Positions 8,834 through 30,732 of a stretch of DNA of 64,000 nucleotides are shown here, piece by piece. Location of the stretch: the NCBI RefSeq assembly GCF_001677475.2, contig NZ_CP015229.1; one strand, 5' to 3'. Numbering within the stretch: the stretch's first letter is position 1; every line of letters begins with the position of its first letter. Under the pieces are notes generated by a model, which worked only from the letters and a program-made list of their open reading frames with translations, did not search any database and was not told the DNA's origin. The DNA comes from Escherichia coli. Its GTDB lineage: Bacteria > Pseudomonadota > Gammaproteobacteria > Enterobacterales > Enterobacteriaceae. The translations under genes were made by a program, and so were the position numbers.

Positions 8834-11134
8834 ATGGAAAGAAAATTTTTGAGATTAAGTGCTGCGATAATTGGCTTGGGGTTATTATGTTTTTACCAGG
8901 CAAATACAGCATCGGCTACAGATACAGTAACCAGTAAGTCTTCCTCTGGAGAAGTATTACCATCTATCCAGAAGACAAATATCTCTGCTTATGAGAAAGA
9001 GTCGTCTCGCCATTTTAAACTCCCATTTACACAAATCGCACCAGCTCCAGGAAACATAGTCCTGAATGGCGTTAACCCACAGGGGCAAATTGAGTTTGGT
9101 ATGCGTAGCGATGAAATAGTATCAGAAGCAAAACTAAAACTTGAATACACTACATCACCGTCGCTGATCCCTGTCCAGTCACAGCTTAAGGTCTATCTTA
9201 ATGACGAGTTGATGGGGGTATTGCCGATTACCAAAGAACAACTGGGGAAGAAAACGCTGGCGGAAATAACTCTTAACCCATTGTATTTTTCTGATTTTAA
9301 TCGCTTGCGCCTCGAATTAATTAGTCACTACCAGAGCGCCTGTGAAAACCCGACCAGCAGCAATTTGTGGCTTGATATTGGACGTACCAGTGAACTTGAA
9401 CTGGTATTTCAGAGACTTAATCTGAAAAATGATCTTTCATATTTTCCTGTACCGTTTTTTGACCCGCGAGATAACCGCACTAATACATTGCCGATGGTTT
9501 TTGCAGGTACTCCTGAGACTGGTTTGCAGCAGGCATCAGCTATTGTCGCTTCGTGGTTTGGTGCGCAATCTGGCTGGCGTGGTCACCGATTTCCGGTTTT
9601 CTATAACCAGTTACCGGAAAGTAATGCAGTGGTCTTTGCCACTAACAATAGACGCCCGGACTTTCTGCGCGAGCATCCGTTGGTGAATGCGCCTGTTATT
9701 AAAATGATCAGTCATCCACAAAATCCTTTTATCAAATTGCTGGTACTTTTGGGCCGCGATGACAAAGATTTATTACAGGCGGCAAAAGGCCTTGCACAGG
9801 GAAATATACTTTTTCGCGGCGATAGTGTGATCGTAAATGAAGTGACGCCGTTACTGCCGCGTAAACCTTATGATGCGCCAAACTGGGTACGCACTGACCG
9901 TCCTGTAACTTTCGCAGAGCTTAAAAATTATGAAGGGCAGTTACAGGCAAGTGGCCTGGAGTCTGCGGCAATTAATGTTTCATTTAATTTGCCACCTGAT
10001 CTTTTTCTATTGCGTAATCGTGGGGTTGATATGAAGATTAACTATCGCTATACCACGCCAACGATAGGTGGTTCACGCATGGATGTCAGCCTTAATAACC
10101 AGTACCTTGAATCTTTCCGGCTAAGTCCGCAATCTGCTACCGATAGATTGTTGTTACGTTTACCGTTATTGCAAGAATTGTTGGATGGTAATAATGGAAT
10201 TACCATTCCTGCGCTGACGTTGGGGGCGCTTAATCAATTGCGATTTAATTTTGAGTACATTAATACAATGCCGCGTTCTGATGCTGATAGCTGTATTATT
10301 TCCAGGCCTCTAAAAAATCATGCGGTTATTGCAGATGATTCCACTATCGATTTTTCAAAGTACCATCACTTTATCGCAATGCCAGATTTACGCGCTTTTG
10401 CCAGCTCAGGCTTTCCATTTAGCCGCATGGCCGATCTATCAGAAACGGTTGTGGTTATGCCTGAAAATCCTGGTACAACGCAAGTTGAAACATTATTAAA
10501 TACCCTTGGACTGATTGGTGCTCAAACTGGATTTCCGGCAATTAATCTGACAATTACTGATGATATAGGTTCTGTCCAGGGTAAGGATTCAGATATTCTG
10601 CTTATAGGAACACTTCCGCAAGAATTTGCAGATAAACAGCAAATTAATCTGCTCATTGAGGCAACAACGAGTTGGGTAAAAAGCCCAATGCGGAACACTG
10701 ATTACGCAAAAATTATGGCAGATAAAAACGATCAAAAACCTGAAATACAAACAACTATAAATTCCCCATTGCCAATGGCGGCGATAGTTGGTTTTCAGTC
10801 CCCATATCATGCCCAACGTAGCGTAATTGCTTTAATGTCCGAGGGATCACGCGGCGATACGCTACTCAACAATGCGTTAATTAATAGTACAAAACGCGGC
10901 AATATTTTTGGTTCAGTCGCGGTTATTCGCGAATCTGGCGTCAATAGTTTACAGGTTGGAGATACTTATTACGTTGGGCATCTCCCCTGGATTGAACGAG
11001 TGCAATATGTGTTAGCCAGACACCCCATTCTACTGGCAGTCCTGGCAACTCTCAGTGTGGTGCTATTGGCGTGGGTAGTATGGCGTCTGTTACGTAACAT
11101 TAGTCGCCGTCGTCTGAACCCTCATCAACAGTAA
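8834..11134 (+). CDS. BcsB-like periplasmic subunit with signal peptide and C-terminal membrane anchor
   Basis: ORF-track 8798..11134 opens at a TTG; ATG at 8834 gives a classical signal peptide (MERKFLRLSAAIIGLGLLCFYQANTASA). About 770 aa with a C-terminal hydrophobic helix followed by RRRLNP, the typical BcsB size and topology. Confidence 0.8.
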   Translation: MERKFLRLSAAIIGLGLLCFYQANTASATDTVTSKSSSGEVLPSIQKTNISAYEKESSRHFKLPFTQIAPAPGNIVLNGVNPQGQIEFGMRSDEIVSEAKLKLEYTTSPSLIPVQSQLKVYLNDELMGVLPITKEQLGKKTLAEITLNPLYFSDFNRLRLELISHYQSACENPTSSNLWLDIGRTSELELVFQRLNLKNDLSYFPVPFFDPRDNRTNTLPMVFAGTPETGLQQASAIVASWFGAQSGWRGHRFPVFYNQLPESNAVVFATNNRRPDFLREHPLVNAPVIKMISHPQNPFIKLLVLLGRDDKDLLQAAKGLAQGNILFRGDSVIVNEVTPLLPRKPYDAPNWVRTDRPVTFAELKNYEGQLQASGLESAAINVSFNLPPDLFLLRNRGVDMKINYRYTTPTIGGSRMDVSLNNQYLESFRLSPQSATDRLLLRLPLLQELLDGNNGITIPALTLGALNQLRFNFEYINTMPRSDADSCIISRPLKNHAVIADDSTIDFSKYHHFIAMPDLRAFASSGFPFSRMADLSETVVVMPENPGTTQVETLLNTLGLIGAQTGFPAINLTITDDIGSVQGKDSDILLIGTLPQEFADKQQINLLIEATTSWVKSPMRNTDYAKIMADKNDQKPEIQTTINSPLPMAAIVGFQSPYHAQRSVIALMSEGSRGDTLLNNALINSTKRGNIFGSVAVIRESGVNSLQVGDTYYVGHLPWIERVQYVLARHPILLAVLATLSVVLLAWVVWRLLRNISRRRLNPHQQ

Positions 11135-11246
11135 TTCATCATCATTTCTATTTTGCGGCTCCATTCTGTCCTGACTTTATACAGGCAGGGAGCTGCGCCC
11201 GTTCTGTTTTTAATAAAAAGTGAGTTAACACCTGATTGAGGCAGGC

Positions 11247-14200
11247 ATGTACAAATTCACCCTAAATTTACTCACAATATCCCTTGGTTTGGCGGTAATG
11301 TCGATGGCGAAAGCCACACCAACTGTACACAAGCTGTTAATGGCGCAGATTCGGTTAGGCGAAGACATTCATCGTGAAGATCTGGTCGAACAGTCGCTTT
11401 ATCGTCTTGAATTGGCGGAACCTGATAATCCAGATGTCGTTGCGGCGCGTTTTCGCTATCTGCTGCGTAAGGGGGATATTGAAGGTGCGCAAAAACAACT
11501 TGCCAGACTTTCCCTGTTCGCTCCTGATTCAAAAATATATAAAGCATCGCGCACGGCCATGCGACTTTCTTCGCCTGAGGGGCGTCAGGCACTGCAAATG
11601 GCACGCTTACAAGCTATCTCCGGGCGACATAAAGAGGCTATCGACAGTTACGACAAGCTATTTAACGGGGCACCGCCAGATATCGAAATGGCGCTGGAAT
11701 ACTGGGGGGCAATGACGCAAATTTCCTCCCGTCGCAACGAAGCGATTCGTCAGTTGAAAATACTTAATATTGATAATCCTGACTCTGGTGCCATATTTGG
11801 GGCGCTGGGGCAGGCGTATTCCCAGAATGGCGATCGCGCTAATGCGGTGGCGAATCTGGAAAAAGCCCTCGCACTGGATCCGCACAGCAGCAACAACGAC
11901 AAATGGAACAGTCTGCTGAAGGTGAATCGCTACTGGCTGGCGATCCAGCAGGGCGATGCTGCGCTGAAAGCCAATAATCCTGACCGCGCAGAGCGTCTGT
12001 TCCAGCAGGCGCGCAATGTCGATAACGCCGACAGCTATGCGGTGCTGGGGCTGGGCGATGTGGCGATGGCGCGCAAAGATTACCCCGCCGCCGAACGTTA
12101 TTATCAGCAGACGCTGCGTATGGACAGCGGCAACACCAACGCCGTGCGCGGGCTGGCGAATCTTTATCGCCAGCAGTCGCCGGAAAAAGCCGAAGCGTTT
12201 ATTGCCTCGCTCTCTGCCAGCCAGCGGCGCAGCGTTGATGACATCGAACGCAGCCTGCAAAACACGCGTTTATCACAGCAGGCAGAGGCACTGGAAAATC
12301 AGGGTAAATGGGCGCAGGCGGCAGCACTTCAGCGCCAGCGACTGGCGCTCGATCCCGGCAGTGTGTGGATTACTTACCGGCTTTCGCAGGATCTCTGGCA
12401 GGCCGGACAACGCAGCCAGGCCGATACGTTAATGCGCCATCTGGCGCAGCAGAAGCCGAACGACCCGGAGCAGGTTTACGCTTACGGGCTGTATCTCTCT
12501 GGTCATGACCAGGACAGAGCGGCGCTGGCGCATATCAACAGCCTGCCGCGCGCGCAATGGAACAGCAATATTCAGGAGCTGGTTAATCGACTGCAAAGCG
12601 ATCAGGTGCTGGAAACCGCTAATCGCCTGCGAGAAAGCGGCAAAGAAGCTGAAGCGGAAGCGATGCTGCGCCAACAACCACCTTCCACGCGTATTGATCT
12701 CACGCTGGCTGACTGGGCGCAACAACGACGTGATTATACCGCCGCCCGCGCTGCATATCAGAATGTCCTGATGCGGGAGCCAACTAACGCCGATGCCATT
12801 CTTGGTCTGACGGAAGTGGATATTGCTGCCGGTGACAAAGCGGCAGCACGTAGCCAGCTGGCGAAACTGCCTGCCACCGATAACGCGTCGCTGAACACTC
12901 AGCGGCGCGTGGCGCTGGCACAGGCGCAGCTTGGCGATACCGCAGCGGCGCAGCAGACGTTTAATAAGTTGATCCCGCAGGCAAAATCTCAGCCGCCGTC
13001 GATGGAAAGCGCGATGGTGCTGCGCGACGGTGCGAAGTTTGAAGCGCAGGCGGGCGATCCAAAGCAGGCGCTGGAAACCTACAAAGACGCCATGGTCGCA
13101 TCCGGTGTGACTACGACGCGTCCGCAGGATAACGACACCTTTACCCGACTGACCCGTAACGATGAGAAAGATGACTGGCTGAAGCGCGGTGTGCGCAGCG
13201 ACGCGGCAGATCTCTATCGTCAGCAGGATCTTAACGTCACCCTTGAGCACGACTACTGGGGATCGAGTGGCACCGGTGGTTACTCCGACCTGAAAGCGCA
13301 CACTACCATGTTGCAGGTGGATGCTCCGTATTCTGACGGGAGGATGTTCTTTCGCAGTGATTTCGTCAATATGAACGTCGGCAGTTTCTCCACTAATGCC
13401 GATGGCAAATGGGATGACAACTGGGGCACCTGTACATTACAGGACTGTAGTGGCAACCGCAGCCAGTCGGACTCCGGTGCCAGCGTGGCGGTCGGCTGGC
13501 GAAATGACGTCTGGAGCTGGGATATCGGTACCACGCCGATGGGCTTCAACGTGGTGGATGTGGTCGGCGGCATCAGTTACAGCGATGATATCGGGCCGCT
13601 GGGTTACACCGTTAACGCCCACCGTCGGCCCATCTCCAGTTCTTTGCTGGCCTTTGGTGGGCAAAAAGACTCTCCGGGCAATACCGGGAAAAAATGGGGT
13701 GGCGTGCGTGCCGACGGCGTGGGGCTAAGCCTGAGCTACGATAAAGGTGAAGCAAACGGCGTCTGGGCATCGCTTAGCGGTGACCAGTTAACCGGTAAAA
13801 ATGTCGAAGATAACTGGCGCGTGCGCTGGATGACGGGCTATTACTATAAGGTCATTAACCAGAACAATCGCCGCGTCACAATCGGCCTGAACAACATGAT
13901 CTGGCATTACGACAAAGATCTGAGTGGCTACTCACTCGGTCAGGGCGGTTACTACAGTCCGCAGGAATACCTGTCGTTTGCCATACCGGTGATGTGGCGG
14001 GAGCGCACGGAAAACTGGTCGTGGGAGCTGGGTGCATCTGGCTCGTGGTCGCATTCGCGCACCAAAACCATGCCGCGTTATCCGCTGATGAACCTGATCC
14101 CGACGGACTGGAAAGAGGATGCCGCCAGCCAGACCAACGACGGCGGCAGCAGTCAGGGCTTTGGCTACACGGCGCGGGCGTTACTTGAGCGTCGCGTCAC

Positions 14201-26143: not shown

Positions 26144-27817
26144 ATGACTGAATCTTTTGCTCAACTCTTTGAAGAGTCCTTAAAAGAAATCGAAACCCGC
26201 CCGGGTTCTATCGTTCGTGGCGTTGTTGTTGCTATCGACAAAGACGTAGTACTGGTTGACGCTGGTCTGAAATCTGAGTCCGCCATCCCGGCTGAGCAGT
26301 TCAAAAACGCCCAGGGCGAGCTGGAAATCCAGGTAGGTGACGAAGTTGACGTTGCTCTGGACGCAGTAGAAGACGGCTTCGGTGAAACTCTGCTGTCCCG
26401 TGAGAAAGCTAAACGTCACGAAGCCTGGATCACGCTGGAAAAAGCTTACGAAGATGCTGAAACTGTTACCGGTGTTATCAACGGCAAAGTTAAGGGCGGC
26501 TTCACTGTTGAGCTGAACGGTATTCGTGCGTTCCTGCCAGGTTCTCTGGTAGACGTTCGTCCGGTGCGTGACACTCTGCACCTGGAAGGCAAAGAGCTTG
26601 AATTCAAAGTAATCAAGCTGGATCAGAAGCGCAACAACGTTGTTGTTTCTCGTCGTGCCGTTATCGAATCCGAAAACAGCGCAGAGCGCGATCAGCTGCT
26701 GGAAAACCTGCAGGAAGGCATGGAAGTTAAAGGTATCGTTAAGAACCTCACTGACTACGGTGCATTCGTTGATCTGGGCGGCGTTGACGGCCTGCTGCAC
26801 ATCACTGACATGGCCTGGAAACGCGTTAAGCATCCGAGCGAAATCGTCAATGTGGGCGACGAAATCACTGTTAAAGTGCTGAAGTTCGACCGCGAACGTA
26901 CCCGTGTATCTCTGGGCCTGAAACAGCTGGGCGAAGATCCGTGGGTAGCTATTGCTAAACGTTATCCGGAAGGTACCAAACTGACTGGTCGCGTGACCAA
27001 CCTGACTGACTACGGCTGCTTCGTTGAAATCGAAGAAGGCGTTGAAGGCCTGGTACACGTTTCCGAAATGGATTGGACCAACAAAAACATCCACCCGTCC
27101 AAAGTTGTTAACGTTGGCGATGTAGTGGAAGTTATGGTTCTGGATATCGACGAAGAACGTCGTCGTATCTCCCTGGGTCTGAAACAGTGCAAAGCTAACC
27201 CGTGGCAGCAGTTCGCGGAAACCCACAACAAGGGCGACCGTGTTGAAGGTAAAATCAAGTCTATCACTGACTTCGGTATCTTCATCGGCCTGGACGGCGG
27301 CATCGACGGCTTGGTTCACCTGTCTGACATCTCCTGGAACGTTGCAGGCGAAGAAGCAGTTCGTGAATACAAAAAAGGCGACGAAATCGCTGCAGTTGTT
27401 CTGCAGGTTGACGCAGAACGTGAACGTATCTCCCTGGGCGTTAAACAGCTCGCAGAAGATCCGTTCAACAACTGGGTTGCTCTGAACAAGAAAGGCGCTA
27501 TCGTAACCGGTAAAGTAACTGCAGTTGACGCTAAAGGCGCAACCGTAGAACTGGCTGACGGCGTTGAAGGTTACCTGCGTGCTTCTGAAGCATCCCGTGA
27601 CCGCGTTGAAGACGCTACCCTGGTTCTGAGCGTTGGCGACGAAGTTGAAGCTAAATTCACCGGCGTTGATCGTAAAAACCGCGCAATCAGCCTGTCTGTT
27701 CGTGCGAAAGACGAAGCTGACGAGAAAGATGCAATCGCAACTGTTAACAAACAGGAAGATGCAAACTTCTCCAACAACGCAATGGCTGAAGCTTTCAAAG
27801 CAGCTAAAGGCGAGTAA
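26144..27817 (+). CDS. rpsA: 30S ribosomal protein S1 (557 aa)
   Basis: Six S1 repeats, [21 protein letters not shown] … [12 protein letters not shown]. Confidence 0.97.
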
Positions 27818-27900
27818 TTCTCTGACTCTTCGGGATTTTTATTCCGAAGTTTGTTGAGTTTACTTGACAGATTGCAGGTTTCGTCCTGTAATCAAGCACT

Positions 27901-27922
27901 AAGGGCGGCTACGGCCGCCCTT
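27901..27922 (+). terminator. Perfect hairpin between rpsA and ihfB
   Basis: AAGGGCGGC-TACG-GCCGCCCTT, read directly; no clear T-run, so terminator function is uncertain. Confidence 0.4.
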
Positions 27923-27976
27923 AATCAATGCAGCAACAGCAGCCGCTTAATTTGCCTTTAAGGAACCGGAGGAATC

Positions 27977-28261
27977 ATGACCAAGTCAGAATTGATAGAA
28001 AGACTTGCCACCCAGCAATCGCACATTCCCGCCAAGACGGTTGAAGATGCAGTAAAAGAGATGCTGGAGCATATGGCCTCGACTCTTGCGCAGGGCGAGC
28101 GTATTGAAATCCGCGGTTTCGGCAGTTTCTCTTTGCACTACCGCGCACCACGTACCGGACGTAATCCGAAGACTGGCGATAAAGTAGAACTGGAAGGAAA
28201 ATACGTTCCTCACTTTAAACCTGGTAAAGAACTGCGCGATCGCGCCAATATTTACGGTTAA
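27977..28261 (+). CDS. ihfB: Integration host factor beta subunit (94 aa)
   Basis: [51 protein letters not shown]; GGAGG before the ATG. Confidence 0.95.
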
Positions 28262-28286
28262 GTTTTTACTCAAACTTGAACGAGAG

Positions 28287-28311
28287 AAAAGCACCTGTCG
28301 GGTGCTTTTTT
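28287..28311 (+). terminator. ihfB rho-independent terminator
   Basis: GCACC-TGTCG-GGTGC followed by TTTTTT. Confidence 0.55.
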
Positions 28312-28467
28312 CATTTCTCTAATCTGGAACTGGAAGCTGCTTCGCAGAGTTTTGAGCAGTTTTCACCCTTTCGTTAAATTCTTCTGAACGTGCCTCGGGG
28401 AACGCAAAATTCCCACCAGACAACCGCTCAACAAAGTTGCACACTTTCCATAAACAGGGAGGGGTGC

Positions 28468-30732
28468 ATGAAAATAACGACAGTCGGCATATGCATAATT
28501 TGCGGAATTTTTCCGTTGCTGATTTTGCCCCAATTGCCTGGGACATTAACCCTTGCGTTTCTGACTCTCTTCGCCTGCGTACTGGCATTTATCCCTGTTA
28601 AAACCGTCCGTTATATCGCGCTGACGTTGCTGTTTTTCGTTTGGGGCATATTATCAGCAAAGCAAATTTTGTGGGCAGGAGAAACCTTAACTGGCGCGAC
28701 GCAGGATGCAATTGTTGAGATCACTGCTACTGACGGCATGACCACTCATTACGGTCAAATTACTTATCTACAAGGTCGACGTATATTCCCTGCGCCAGGC
28801 CTTGTGCTGTATGGCGAATATCTTCCGCAAGCGGTTTGTGCCGGACAACTGTGGTCAATGAAACTCAAAGTTCGTGCCGTTCATGGTCAACTTAATGATG
28901 GCGGCTTTGATAGCCAGCGTTATGCCATTGCCCAGCATCAGCCGCTCACCGGCCGCTTTCTGCAGGCAAGTGTTATTGAACCGAATTGTAGCCTGCGTGC
29001 ACAGTATCTGGCGTCACTACAAACAACGCTGCAACCCTATCCGTGGAATGCGGTTATTCTTGGTTTAGGTATGGGGGAACGGTTATCCGTCCCCAAAGAA
29101 ATCAAAAATATCATGCGCGATACTGGAACGGCGCATTTAATGGCGATATCGGGATTGCACATCGCTTTTGCGGCGTTGCTGGCTGCCGGACTGATTCGCA
29201 GTGGACAAATTTTTCTGCCTGGGCGCTGGATCCACTGGCAAATGCCATTAATTGGCGGAATCTGCTGTGCTGCTTTTTATGCCTGGCTGACTGGGATGCA
29301 ACCTCCTGCATTGCGTACCGTGGTGGCGCTTGCTACGTGGGGAATGCTTAAGTTAAGTGGGCGACAGTGGAGTGGCTGGGATGTATGGATATGTTGTCTG
29401 GCGGCAATTTTGCTGATGGATCCTGTTGCCATTCTCTCGCAAAGTTTATGGCTCTCTGCCGCTGCGGTCGCGGCACTGATTTTTTGGTCTCAGTGGTTTC
29501 CCGGTCCTGAGTGGCAACTGCCGCCGGTATTGCGTGCAGTTGTTTCCCTCATCCATCTGCAACTGGGAATCACACTCCTGCTTATGCCCGTGCAAATCGT
29601 CATATTTCATGGCATTAGTCTGACCTCGTTTATTGCAAATCTATTTGCAATTCCCCTGGTGACATTTATCACGGTTCCGTTGATCCTCGCCGCTATGGTT
29701 GTGCATTTAAGCGGGCCGTTAATCCTGGAAGAGGGATTATGGTTTCTTGCCGACCGGTCTTTGGCTTTACTTTTCTGGGGGTTAAAGAGTTTGCCGGAAG
29801 GGTGGATCAACATTGCTGAACGTTGGCAATGGCTAACATTTTCCCCATGGTTCTTACTGGTGGTATGGCGATTAAACGCCTGGCGAACGTTGCCAGCAAT
29901 GTGTGTGGCTGTAGGCTTGCTGATGTGCTGGCCGCTGTGGCAAAAACCTCGACCTGACGAGTGGCAAGTGTACATGCTTGATGTCGGGCAAGGGCTGGCA
30001 ATGGTGATAGCCAGAAACGGCAAAGCGATTCTCTATGACACGGGACTGGCCTGGCCCGAAGGGGATAGTGGGCAACAACTGATTATCCCCTGGCTCCACT
30101 GGCATAATCTTGAACCGGAAGGCGTTATTCTGAGTCATGAACATCTGGATCACCGGGGAGGGCTGGACTCAATATTGCATACATGGCCGATGTTATGGAT
30201 CAGAAGTCCGTTAAACTGGGAACATCATCAGCCCTGTGTGCGTGGCGAAGCGTGGCAATGGCAAGGATTGCGTTTCAGCGCGCACTGGCCTTTACAAGGT
30301 AGCAACGATAAAGGAAATAACCATTCCTGTGTGGTTAAGATTGATGACGGGACGAATAGCATTCTTCTAACCGGTGATATTGAAGCCCCCGCTGAACAAA
30401 AGATGCTAAGCCGTTACTGGCAGCAAGTGCAAGCAACATTACTTCAGGTACCTCACCATGGCAGTAATACCTCATCATCGTTGCCATTAATTCAGCGAGT
30501 GAATGGAAAAGTGGCACTCGCATCGGCATCGCGCTATAACGCATGGCGATTGCCCTCTAACAAAGTTAAGCATCGCTATCAACAACAGGGTTATAAGTGG
30601 CTTGATACTCCTCATCAGGGGCAAATAACGGTCAATTTTTCAGCGCAAGGCTGGCGGATTAGCAGCCTCAGGGAGCAAATTTTACCTCGTTGGTATCATC
30701 AGTGGTTTGGCGTGCCAGTGGATAACGGGTAG
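28468..30732 (+). CDS. ycaI: ComEC/Rec2-family inner-membrane protein with C-terminal metallo-beta-lactamase-like domain (754 aa)
   Basis: Starts MKITTVGICIICGIFPLL; polytopic membrane region then HEHLDHRGG motif; ORF-track frame extends 26 codons upstream. Confidence 0.85.
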   Translation: MKITTVGICIICGIFPLLILPQLPGTLTLAFLTLFACVLAFIPVKTVRYIALTLLFFVWGILSAKQILWAGETLTGATQDAIVEITATDGMTTHYGQITYLQGRRIFPAPGLVLYGEYLPQAVCAGQLWSMKLKVRAVHGQLNDGGFDSQRYAIAQHQPLTGRFLQASVIEPNCSLRAQYLASLQTTLQPYPWNAVILGLGMGERLSVPKEIKNIMRDTGTAHLMAISGLHIAFAALLAAGLIRSGQIFLPGRWIHWQMPLIGGICCAAFYAWLTGMQPPALRTVVALATWGMLKLSGRQWSGWDVWICCLAAILLMDPVAILSQSLWLSAAAVAALIFWSQWFPGPEWQLPPVLRAVVSLIHLQLGITLLLMPVQIVIFHGISLTSFIANLFAIPLVTFITVPLILAAMVVHLSGPLILEEGLWFLADRSLALLFWGLKSLPEGWINIAERWQWLTFSPWFLLVVWRLNAWRTLPAMCVAVGLLMCWPLWQKPRPDEWQVYMLDVGQGLAMVIARNGKAILYDTGLAWPEGDSGQQLIIPWLHWHNLEPEGVILSHEHLDHRGGLDSILHTWPMLWIRSPLNWEHHQPCVRGEAWQWQGLRFSAHWPLQGSNDKGNNHSCVVKIDDGTNSILLTGDIEAPAEQKMLSRYWQQVQATLLQVPHHGSNTSSSLPLIQRVNGKVALASASRYNAWRLPSNKVKHRYQQQGYKWLDTPHQGQITVNFSAQGWRISSLREQILPRWYHQWFGVPVDNG

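Follow-up and report, generated by a model that had tools for sequence, protein, structure and literature searches.

One hairpin shared by the 3' end of rpsA transcripts and the 5' end of the ihfB mRNA in Escherichia coli

The window, a stretch of 64,000 nucleotides of the Escherichia coli chromosome, carries the genes cmk-rpsA-ihfB-ycaI-msbA in this order, and our analysis concerns the spacer of 159 nt that separates rpsA from ihfB (Table 1). This part of the chromosome is nearly uniform within the species. A 601-nt region around the spacer hairpin, which bears the rpsA and ihfB annotation in complete E. coli genomes, was at least 99% identical in 5425 of 5426 such genomes and occupied a median of one place per genome. 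Neither the spacer nor ihfB shows any base difference from K-12 MG1655. Data obtained in K-12 can therefore be transferred to the present sequence, a window position being the NC_000913.3 coordinate minus 935851. Just 3' of the ihfB stop, at window 28268, a T-run consists of five T rather than the six found in K-12, and K-12 coordinates downstream of it are shifted by one base. When this 1-nt indel is allowed for, the 3' end of the ihfB terminator mapped by Term-seq at K-12 964165 corresponds to window 28313; SMRT-Cappable-seq gives the TTS at 964164. The rpsA-ihfB spacer as a whole folds far more stably than shuffled sequence (z = -5.8).

Table 1. Features of the rpsA-ihfB region, in window positions.
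Feature	Position	Strand	Basis or remark
rpsA	26144-27817	+	
Variable rpsA-proximal segment	27818-27863	+	part of the Enterobacteriaceae-specific insert, which also bears the promoter
-35 hexamer TTGACA of ihfBp	27864-27869	+	6/6 consensus; invariant in 22/22 promoter-bearing Enterobacteriaceae loci
Promoter spacer GATTGCAGGTTTCGTCC	17 nt between -35 and -10	+	
-10 hexamer TGTAAT	27887-27892	+	5/6 consensus; preceded by C; G instead of A at position 2; invariant across genera
Transcription start +1 (A) of monocistronic ihfB mRNA	27901	+	Cappable-seq; SMRT-Cappable-seq one base off
Hairpin AAGGGCGGC-TACG-GCCGCCCTT	27901-27922	+	perfect stem
Extended perfect 10-bp stem, GC-rich, UAAGGGCGGC-UACG-GCCGCCCUUA	27900-27923	+	5' end of ihfB mRNA; 3'-terminal in rpsA mRNA
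Main rpsA RNA 3' end (C)	27926	+	4 nt past the 9-bp stem, 6 nt past the all-GC core
Rest of the 76-nt ihfB 5' UTR	27924-27976	+	Shine-Dalgarno GGAGG at 27968-27972
ihfB coding sequence	27977-28261	+	
ihfB intrinsic terminator and mapped 3' end	28284-28313	+	terminator scan; Term-seq; SMRT-Cappable-seq

A sequence-only reading of this DNA had pointed to a near-consensus promoter, with TTGACA at 27864-27869, a 17-nt spacer and TGTAAT at 27887-27892, from which a transcript would begin with a hairpin at 27901-27922. All of these coordinates are exact, and comparison with mapped ihfB starts bears out both the promoter and the predicted transcript. In the Cappable-seq data (Ettwiller 2016, PMC4782308), a TSS stands at U00096.2 962975(+), with a score of 364.9 and a log2 enrichment of 7.64, which is window 27901. 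The promoter thus works: a mapped 5'-triphosphate start lies 9 nt after TGTAAT, within the stretch of about 10 nt downstream of 27892 in which it was to be sought. It coincides with the first base of the 5' arm of the hairpin, the first A of that arm in the K-12 sequence, on which the context was checked. The offset of 777 between U00096.2 and U00096.3 was calibrated on 81 listed starts, with a purine at +1 in 58 of the 81 and a pyrimidine at -1 likewise in 58, and with it textbook promoters fall into place as well, such as TATAAT-tgcgca-A upstream of cmk. Only one stronger start (score 392) occurs in about 20 kb of plus-strand Cappable-seq starts. SMRT-Cappable-seq (Yan 2018, PMC6131387) recovered a monocistronic full-length ihfB RNA extending from 963751 to 964164, its TSS being window 27900.

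By itself, the promoter motif is within chance expectation, as a match to 11 of the 12 hexamer bases occurs once on the plus strand of the window and about 0.9 matches are expected with both strands summed. The site was not called in our promoter scan of the window because the scan demands an A at position 2 of the -10 hexamer, where the site has a G. We judge ihfBp to be real from its mapped start, its position and its invariance across genera rather than from a motif score. The register of the -10 element is ambiguous. With TGTAAT the mapped start lies 9 nt past the last base; in the alternative register TAATCA (27889-27894) it lies at the canonical 7 nt, but the spacer then becomes 19 nt long. 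The near-consensus hexamers with their spacing in the range of 16-18 bp, a primary start 5-9 nt from the -10 element, and the conservation are those of a sigma70-family (sigma70/sigma38) promoter. A C just before the -10 element, as found here, suits the preference of sigma38.

The TTGACA/TGTAAT promoter is the already catalogued ihfB (himD) promoter ihfBp of RegulonDB/EcoCyc. We found no difference from the ihfBp of Aviv et al. (1994) and Weglenska et al. (1996), which shares the locus, the orientation and the strong -35 element; the identification draws on genome-wide TSS data and secondary citations. A preprint on sigma38 promoters counts the RegulonDB ihfBp among this class; of the 169 promoters, it and just one other have a recognisable -35 element, in agreement with the TTGACA seen here. 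Genomic SELEX detected an RpoS-holoenzyme site within the rpsA-ihfB spacer. According to the literature, ihfB is transcribed from its own promoter and is also co-transcribed with rpsA; its transcription responds to growth phase, to rpoS and to ppGpp, with autoregulation by IHF.

A second strong capped 5' end in Cappable-seq (score 111.7, log2 enrichment 7.62) lies at window 27948 (K-12 963799), 29 nt 5' of the ihfB ATG. It falls on a T, is enriched like the main start, lacks sigma70-like -10 and -35 elements upstream and is not in the SMRT-Cappable-seq data. A preprint gives the name 'ihfBp2' to the most downstream ihfB promoter; the 27948 start may be equal to it, and the database names may separate two starts, 27901 and perhaps 27948. 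Another local feature is an inverted repeat, GATTGCAGG / CCTGTAATC (27870-27894), that covers the promoter spacer and the -10 element and becomes a perfect 10-bp palindrome in Citrobacter. Among the substitutions in its 5' arm across loci, two keep the pairing (via G.U) and two break it. This repeat would fold as a third hairpin in read-through rpsA RNA, and as DNA it could be an operator.

The hairpin at which ihfB transcription starts has a UNCG-type tetraloop (cUACGg) closed by a stem with seven consecutive G-C pairs. Its folding energy is -18.8 to -20.1 kcal/mol and its pairing probability about 1.0, and no competing fold or stable alternative pairing of the 5' UTR with the hairpin is predicted. 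Only 0.03% of window positions yield 30-mers that fold at -18 kcal/mol or below. Perfect hairpins of at least 9 bp account for 13 register entries in the window, representing eight distinct sites, against 1.9 entries expected. A repeat of the REP/BIME type was rejected, the hairpin being the single match in 64 kb even when three mismatches are permitted. An Rfam scan of positions 27000-29000 with E values up to 10 returned chance-level partial matches only, such as PhrS at 16.8 bits (gathering score 37), and in the searchable literature we found no discussion of a hairpin in the rpsA-ihfB spacer. At the other end of the 5' UTR, AACCGGAGGAAT(C)ATG is invariant or nearly so between genera.

The sequence-only reading had taken the arrangement for a structured leader of ihfB rather than a simple rpsA terminator. 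This contrast fails, as the hairpin is the dominant rpsA 3'-end site in both Term-seq and SMRT-Cappable-seq. Term-seq (Adams 2021, PMC7815308) maps a 3' end to 963777(+), which is window 27926, with 9925 reads from LB cultures at OD 0.4 and 5221 from M63, and from the rpsA 5' UTR to the ihfB terminator the curated Term-seq set contains no other 3' end. The end does not depend on Rho: its Rho score of 1.34 is not significant and it is BCM-insensitive, and as an intrinsic terminator it scores 14.4, the threshold being 3 (Adams 2021). SMRT-Cappable-seq assigned 337 reads to the rpsA TSS 961720, of which 109 end at 963777 and 67 read past it, and 77 reads to the rpsA TSS 961861, with 38 ending there and 15 reading past. 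Among the rpsA reads that reach the hairpin, about 62-72% therefore stop and 28-38% continue, these values being steady-state read fractions and not termination efficiencies. The SMRT-Cappable-seq data also list rpsA-ihfB read-through operon variants.

The 27926 end is missing from the Term-seq list for LB at OD 2.0. Under that condition the reads at the ihfB terminator go up from 8916 to 11391 while the 27926 end disappears. Its presence during growth and its loss at OD 2.0, when the ihfB terminator signal has risen, thus point to growth-phase transcription of rpsA, not to the activity of ihfBp, as its origin. The Term-seq label of this site, 'orphan 3' end in a 5' UTR', could pass wrongly for a regulatory attenuator of ihfB.

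Two hallmarks of an intrinsic terminator are found here, a stable GC-rich hairpin and mapped Rho-independent 3' ends a few nucleotides past its stem. Of the 8 nt that follow the 10-bp stem, in the 3' flank UUAAUCAAU, only two are T, short of the U-rich tract of an intrinsic terminator, and our terminator scan of the window made no call at the 27900-27923 hairpin. We infer that the 27926 end forms by intrinsic termination at the imperfect U-tract UUAAUC. The terminators rplL-rpoB and rpsO-pnp t1 are examples of leaky or intercistronic terminators in ribosomal-protein operons. Like the leaky terminators and attenuators of such operons, the hairpin is a Rho-independent GC hairpin placed between a strongly expressed translation gene and the gene downstream, and by stopping a share of the transcripts it sets the ratio of two products. 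Unlike them, it has a poor U-tract, and the promoter lies immediately upstream of the hairpin instead of downstream, so that the transcripts of this promoter begin with the terminator hairpin itself.

Other RNA features were seen near the rpsA 3' end. Directly 3' of the rpsA stop lies a hairpin, CTTCGGGAT-TTTT-ATTCCGAAG (27828-27849), followed by TTTGTTGAGTTT, with a T-rich run to 27861. It is the only terminator-like call made by the scan in the spacer, and the curated Term-seq set contains no 3' end at this hairpin. Within the 3' part of rpsA, Cappable-seq starts occur at window 27512 and 27523 (scores 137.7 and 17.5, respectively); together with the 27926 end, these starts would delimit an RNA of about 415 nt over the rpsA 3' end.

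In RNA made from ihfBp, the same hairpin occupies the extreme 5' end. The first 30 nt of the ihfB mRNA fold at -19.5 kcal/mol and leave no nucleotide unpaired, compared with a median of -4.0 over 81 mapped starts, among which the ihfB 5' end is the most structured. Nucleotides 1-9 of the mRNA have pairing probabilities of 0.77-1.0, and the hairpin lies within 0-1 nt of the 5' end. Both RppH and RNase E require at least two unpaired 5' nucleotides, and a 5'-terminal stem-loop blocks RppH (PMC8833179; PMC5714132). By this rule, a monocistronic ihfB mRNA whose 5' end is fully paired should resist 5'-end-dependent decay. From its mapped position the hairpin thus probably stabilises the ihfB mRNA as a 5'-terminal stem-loop. 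Hairpin 1 of the ompA 5' UTR and the papA 5' stem-loop (Emory, Bouvet and Belasco 1992; Bricker and Belasco 1999) likewise leave no single-stranded 5' tail. In contrast to these stabilisers, the ihfB hairpin is far more GC-rich than needed and is at the same time the 3'-end hairpin of the upstream gene, and its stabilising role is one that we infer.

Salmonella, in which the promoter and the hairpin are identical to those of E. coli, offers relevant measurements. Its ihfB mRNA had a half-life of 4.93 min as compared with 2.19 min for ihfA at 7 h, the clearest time point (PMC8942017). When the ORFs were swapped and the UTRs kept where they were, half-lives of 3.38 min for the ihfA ORF preceded by the ihfB leader and of 2.64 min for the ihfB ORF preceded by that of ihfA were obtained (PMC8942017). 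These half-lives are consistent with stabilisation of ihfB, although the differences are small and the swap joins the effects of 5' UTR, 3' UTR and promoter. IHF beta is made in excess over alpha, for which a difference in the stability of the mRNAs has been put forward as the reason (PMC8942017).

For a comparative view of the locus we used 80 species loci with IhfB and 14 more obtained by exact-protein look-up; four of the loci (L083, L085-L087) were assigned to Salmonella by an exact match to a 40-nt SL1344 primer arm. Synteny of rpsA and ihfB extends throughout Gammaproteobacteria, with spacers of 60-240 nt. Nearly all of these spacers contain one dominant hairpin of -14 to -24 kcal/mol, usually 0-20 nt past the rpsA stop, and the sequences of these hairpins are unrelated between orders. 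Of the 47 tetraloop hairpins seen across taxa, 26 have a GNRA or UNCG loop, the chance level being about 5%. A real U-tract follows the hairpin only in some lineages, namely Vibrio, Pseudoalteromonas and Aeromonas.

The E. coli hairpin is orthologous to the GGGCGG-type hairpins of Mangrovibacter, Hafnia, Edwardsiella, Yersinia, Rahnella, Budvicia and Acerihabitans. In these genera the hairpin starts 5-20 nt after the rpsA stop (about 5 nt in Hafnia, Edwardsiella and Yersinia), which leaves no space there for a spacer promoter. In 22 loci of Enterobacteriaceae, from Escherichia, Salmonella, Citrobacter, Pseudocitrobacter, Kluyvera, Pseudescherichia and others, an extra 45-110 nt separates the rpsA stop from the hairpin. 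The upstream part of this insert varies in sequence between genera, yet it contains a hairpin, of differing sequence, in every locus. A promoter before the hairpin is restricted to Enterobacteriaceae and always stands at the same distance from it. Across the 22 loci the hexamers and the spacing TTGACA-17-TGTAAT-8 nt-hairpin are invariant, whereas indels are common elsewhere in the spacer; the 8-nt segment between -10 and hairpin is fixed in length but occurs in five sequence variants. Because a post-rpsA hairpin is found throughout Gammaproteobacteria, the comparison indicates that the hairpin is ancestral and older than the promoter, which would have been added upstream in Enterobacteriaceae in a fixed register.

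The hairpin sequence is invariant in 10 genera and in 13 of 14 further loci. The one exception (L092) has a G-C to G.U change that keeps the pairing in RNA but not in DNA. Within a family of hairpins from 13 Enterobacterales taxa, pairing of the seven-pair core (alignment columns 7-13) is kept in all 13. The core includes one compensatory pair, A-U in eight taxa and G-C in five, and six cells in which one side alone has changed to leave a G.U or U.G wobble. Covariation in this 13-taxon family was not significant against shuffles because variation of the hairpin is scarce, its sequence being near-invariant within Enterobacteriaceae. The paired core, the wobble changes, the UNCG loop and the unrelated hairpins at the same position in distant taxa suggest that the hairpin is under selection at the RNA level.

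The explanation that we favour, and consider likely, combines the known promoter ihfBp with one hairpin that serves two RNAs, as a leaky 3' end of rpsA and as a stabilising 5' stem-loop of ihfB. Transcription from ihfBp starts at A27901. To polymerase arriving from the rpsA promoters, the hairpin presents a Rho-independent, leaky 3'-end element, as the mapping data show: some two-thirds of the transcripts stop at 27926, and the remaining third or so run on into ihfB and produce the long-known rpsA-ihfB co-transcript. In transcripts from ihfBp, the same GC hairpin of 22-24 nt forms a 5'-terminal stem-loop, which would shield the mRNA from 5'-end-dependent decay and prolong its life. One may go further and regard the arrangement as a selected dual-purpose RNA module that sets the read-through ratio and provides a protective 5' cap for stationary-phase ihfB, its register being fixed so that +1 is the first paired base; we advance this only tentatively and lean somewhat against it. 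In a bolder extension, part of the ihfBp transcripts would be aborted at +26, yielding a small hairpin RNA with a 5' triphosphate. The promoter has its database entry already, and public datasets contain both the start and the 3' end. A single hairpin put to two uses and the fixed register that places +1 on the first paired base were not found in the searchable literature, nor did we find there a promoter firing into the terminator hairpin of the preceding gene described as a design principle.

Could the hairpin belong to rpsA only, as a terminator or 3'-end hairpin whose place at +1 is a by-product of promoter insertion without effect on the ihfB mRNA? The hairpin predates the promoter and, in most Enterobacterales, directly follows the rpsA stop with no promoter before it, and the 3'-end role is the sole one with experimental demonstration. 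Against such a by-product stands a -10-to-hairpin distance of 8 nt that is strictly invariant in 22 loci where the neighbouring segments gain and lose bases. Moreover, the block that a paired 5' end imposes on entry of RppH and RNase E applies whatever the origin of the hairpin, and in Salmonella stability goes with the UTRs (PMC8942017). We therefore regard an exclusive role in rpsA as unlikely. A separate question is how the 27926 end is made. Given the poor U-tract and the lack of a scan call, it could arise from processing, whereby read-through rpsA-ihfB RNA would be cut downstream and 3' exonucleases would trim it back to the hairpin. The 3' end lies just 3-4 nt beyond the full stem with no canonical U-tract after it, and the equivalent hairpin in most Enterobacterales is followed by only one to three T in the next 8 nt, as such trimming would permit. 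However, the high intrinsic-terminator score assigned by Adams et al. and the lack of Rho dependence speak for termination; when only the all-GC core of 7 bp is counted, the end is 6 nt downstream, in UUAAUC, near the usual geometry; and several sister genera carry a better tract, UUGUUUAA, after the same hairpin. Processing as the source of this end thus appears doubtful, though it merits serious consideration.

Attenuation of ihfB, which the sequence-only reading had also proposed, did not hold up in its regulated form, as the leader offers no competing fold, no Rfam match and no conserved leader ORF. A regulated attenuator or riboswitch leader was rejected in the absence of mutually exclusive folds and of any Rfam family at gathering score, and a leader peptide was rejected because the only short leader ORF (ATG 27928) lacks a Shine-Dalgarno sequence and does not occur in Salmonella. 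The hairpin might still act as a promoter-proximal attenuator that ends a large share of ihfBp transcripts at about +26 and throttles ihfB, possibly depending on conditions. The same element halts about two-thirds of the transcripts coming from upstream, and all of its parts are present in the nascent ihfBp RNA. In addition, ihfBp equals the main rpsA promoter in Cappable-seq signal (365 and 319, respectively) but yields about 10-fold fewer full-length SMRT reads (32 versus 337). This gap may, however, reflect a bias of the long-read library against short molecules of about 0.4 kb, and was set aside as evidence of early termination. Full-length ihfB RNAs are seen from this start, 17 of the 32 SMRT reads reaching the ihfB terminator; the U-tract is weak; and without antiterminator fold, leader peptide or Rfam family there is nothing to regulate the hairpin. 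The 27926 end is also lost at OD 2.0, the reported peak of ihfB expression, although a 26-nt RNA would probably escape Term-seq. Premature termination of this kind seems to us improbable. Far less credible still is that the palindrome acts as DNA, either as a protein-binding site or as a cruciform, for instance in the autoregulation of ihfBp by IHF. Such autoregulation of ihfB has been reported, a one-mismatch match to the IHF consensus, AATCAAGCACTAA (27890-27902), overlaps the -10 element and +1, and the hairpin sequence itself, beyond its pairing, is invariant in Enterobacteriaceae. But one-mismatch IHF matches occur at chance level in the window (68 observed, 65 expected), and G-C to G.U substitutions preserve the pairing of RNA, not that of DNA. 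The loop, furthermore, is an RNA-stabilising UNCG tetraloop, and the mapped 5' and 3' ends of the RNAs coincide with the boundaries of the stem.

If one hairpin indeed serves both RNAs, its 5'-terminal position on the ihfB mRNA would provide a concrete mechanism by which mRNA stability leads to the excess of the beta subunit of IHF, a global nucleoid protein. Synthesis of ihfB would be coupled to ribosome synthesis during growth, through read-through from rpsA, and uncoupled from it in stationary phase, when ihfB would have its own stable transcript. The components, namely a promoter, a partial terminator and a 5' stem-loop, are all of known kinds. Their combination offers a clean natural case of a single hairpin shared by successive mRNAs, as the 3' end of one and the 5' end of the other, which matters for annotation.

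The spacers of other lineages contain elements of their own. A conserved motif, (A/G/T)CGGTAG(T/C)T, occurs 2-8 nt past the post-rpsA hairpin in loci L017, L019-L027, L031-L033 and L042, which represent Yersinia, Rahnella, Hafnia, Edwardsiella, Pectobacterium, Brenneria, Photorhabdus, Proteus, Arsenophonus, Budvicia and Acerihabitans; it is not found in the loci of the E. coli group. The motif could belong to the ihfB promoter of those genera or be a processing site. The Vibrio spacers (L043, L045, L046, L048-L050), 200-235 nt in length, have a canonical terminator right after rpsA, with an A-tract, a GC stem, a GNRA loop and a U-tract, and then a long conserved segment ending in ...TACTATAAT..., a different solution for the same gene pair. 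This segment is probably a separate ihfB promoter of Vibrio. In Enterobacter sp. Ag1 (L004), spacer positions 11-43 hold TTGTAT and TATAAA separated by 17 nt; this different promoter-like pair stands 3 nt before the corresponding GGGCGGC hairpin and is itself inside a hairpin. Its start, if the pair is active, would fall inside the 5' arm of the GGGCGGC hairpin. Finally, the spacer of Pseudomonas neustonica (L060) carries a tandem heptamer, (GCTTGCA)n, in about eight copies upstream of ihfB.
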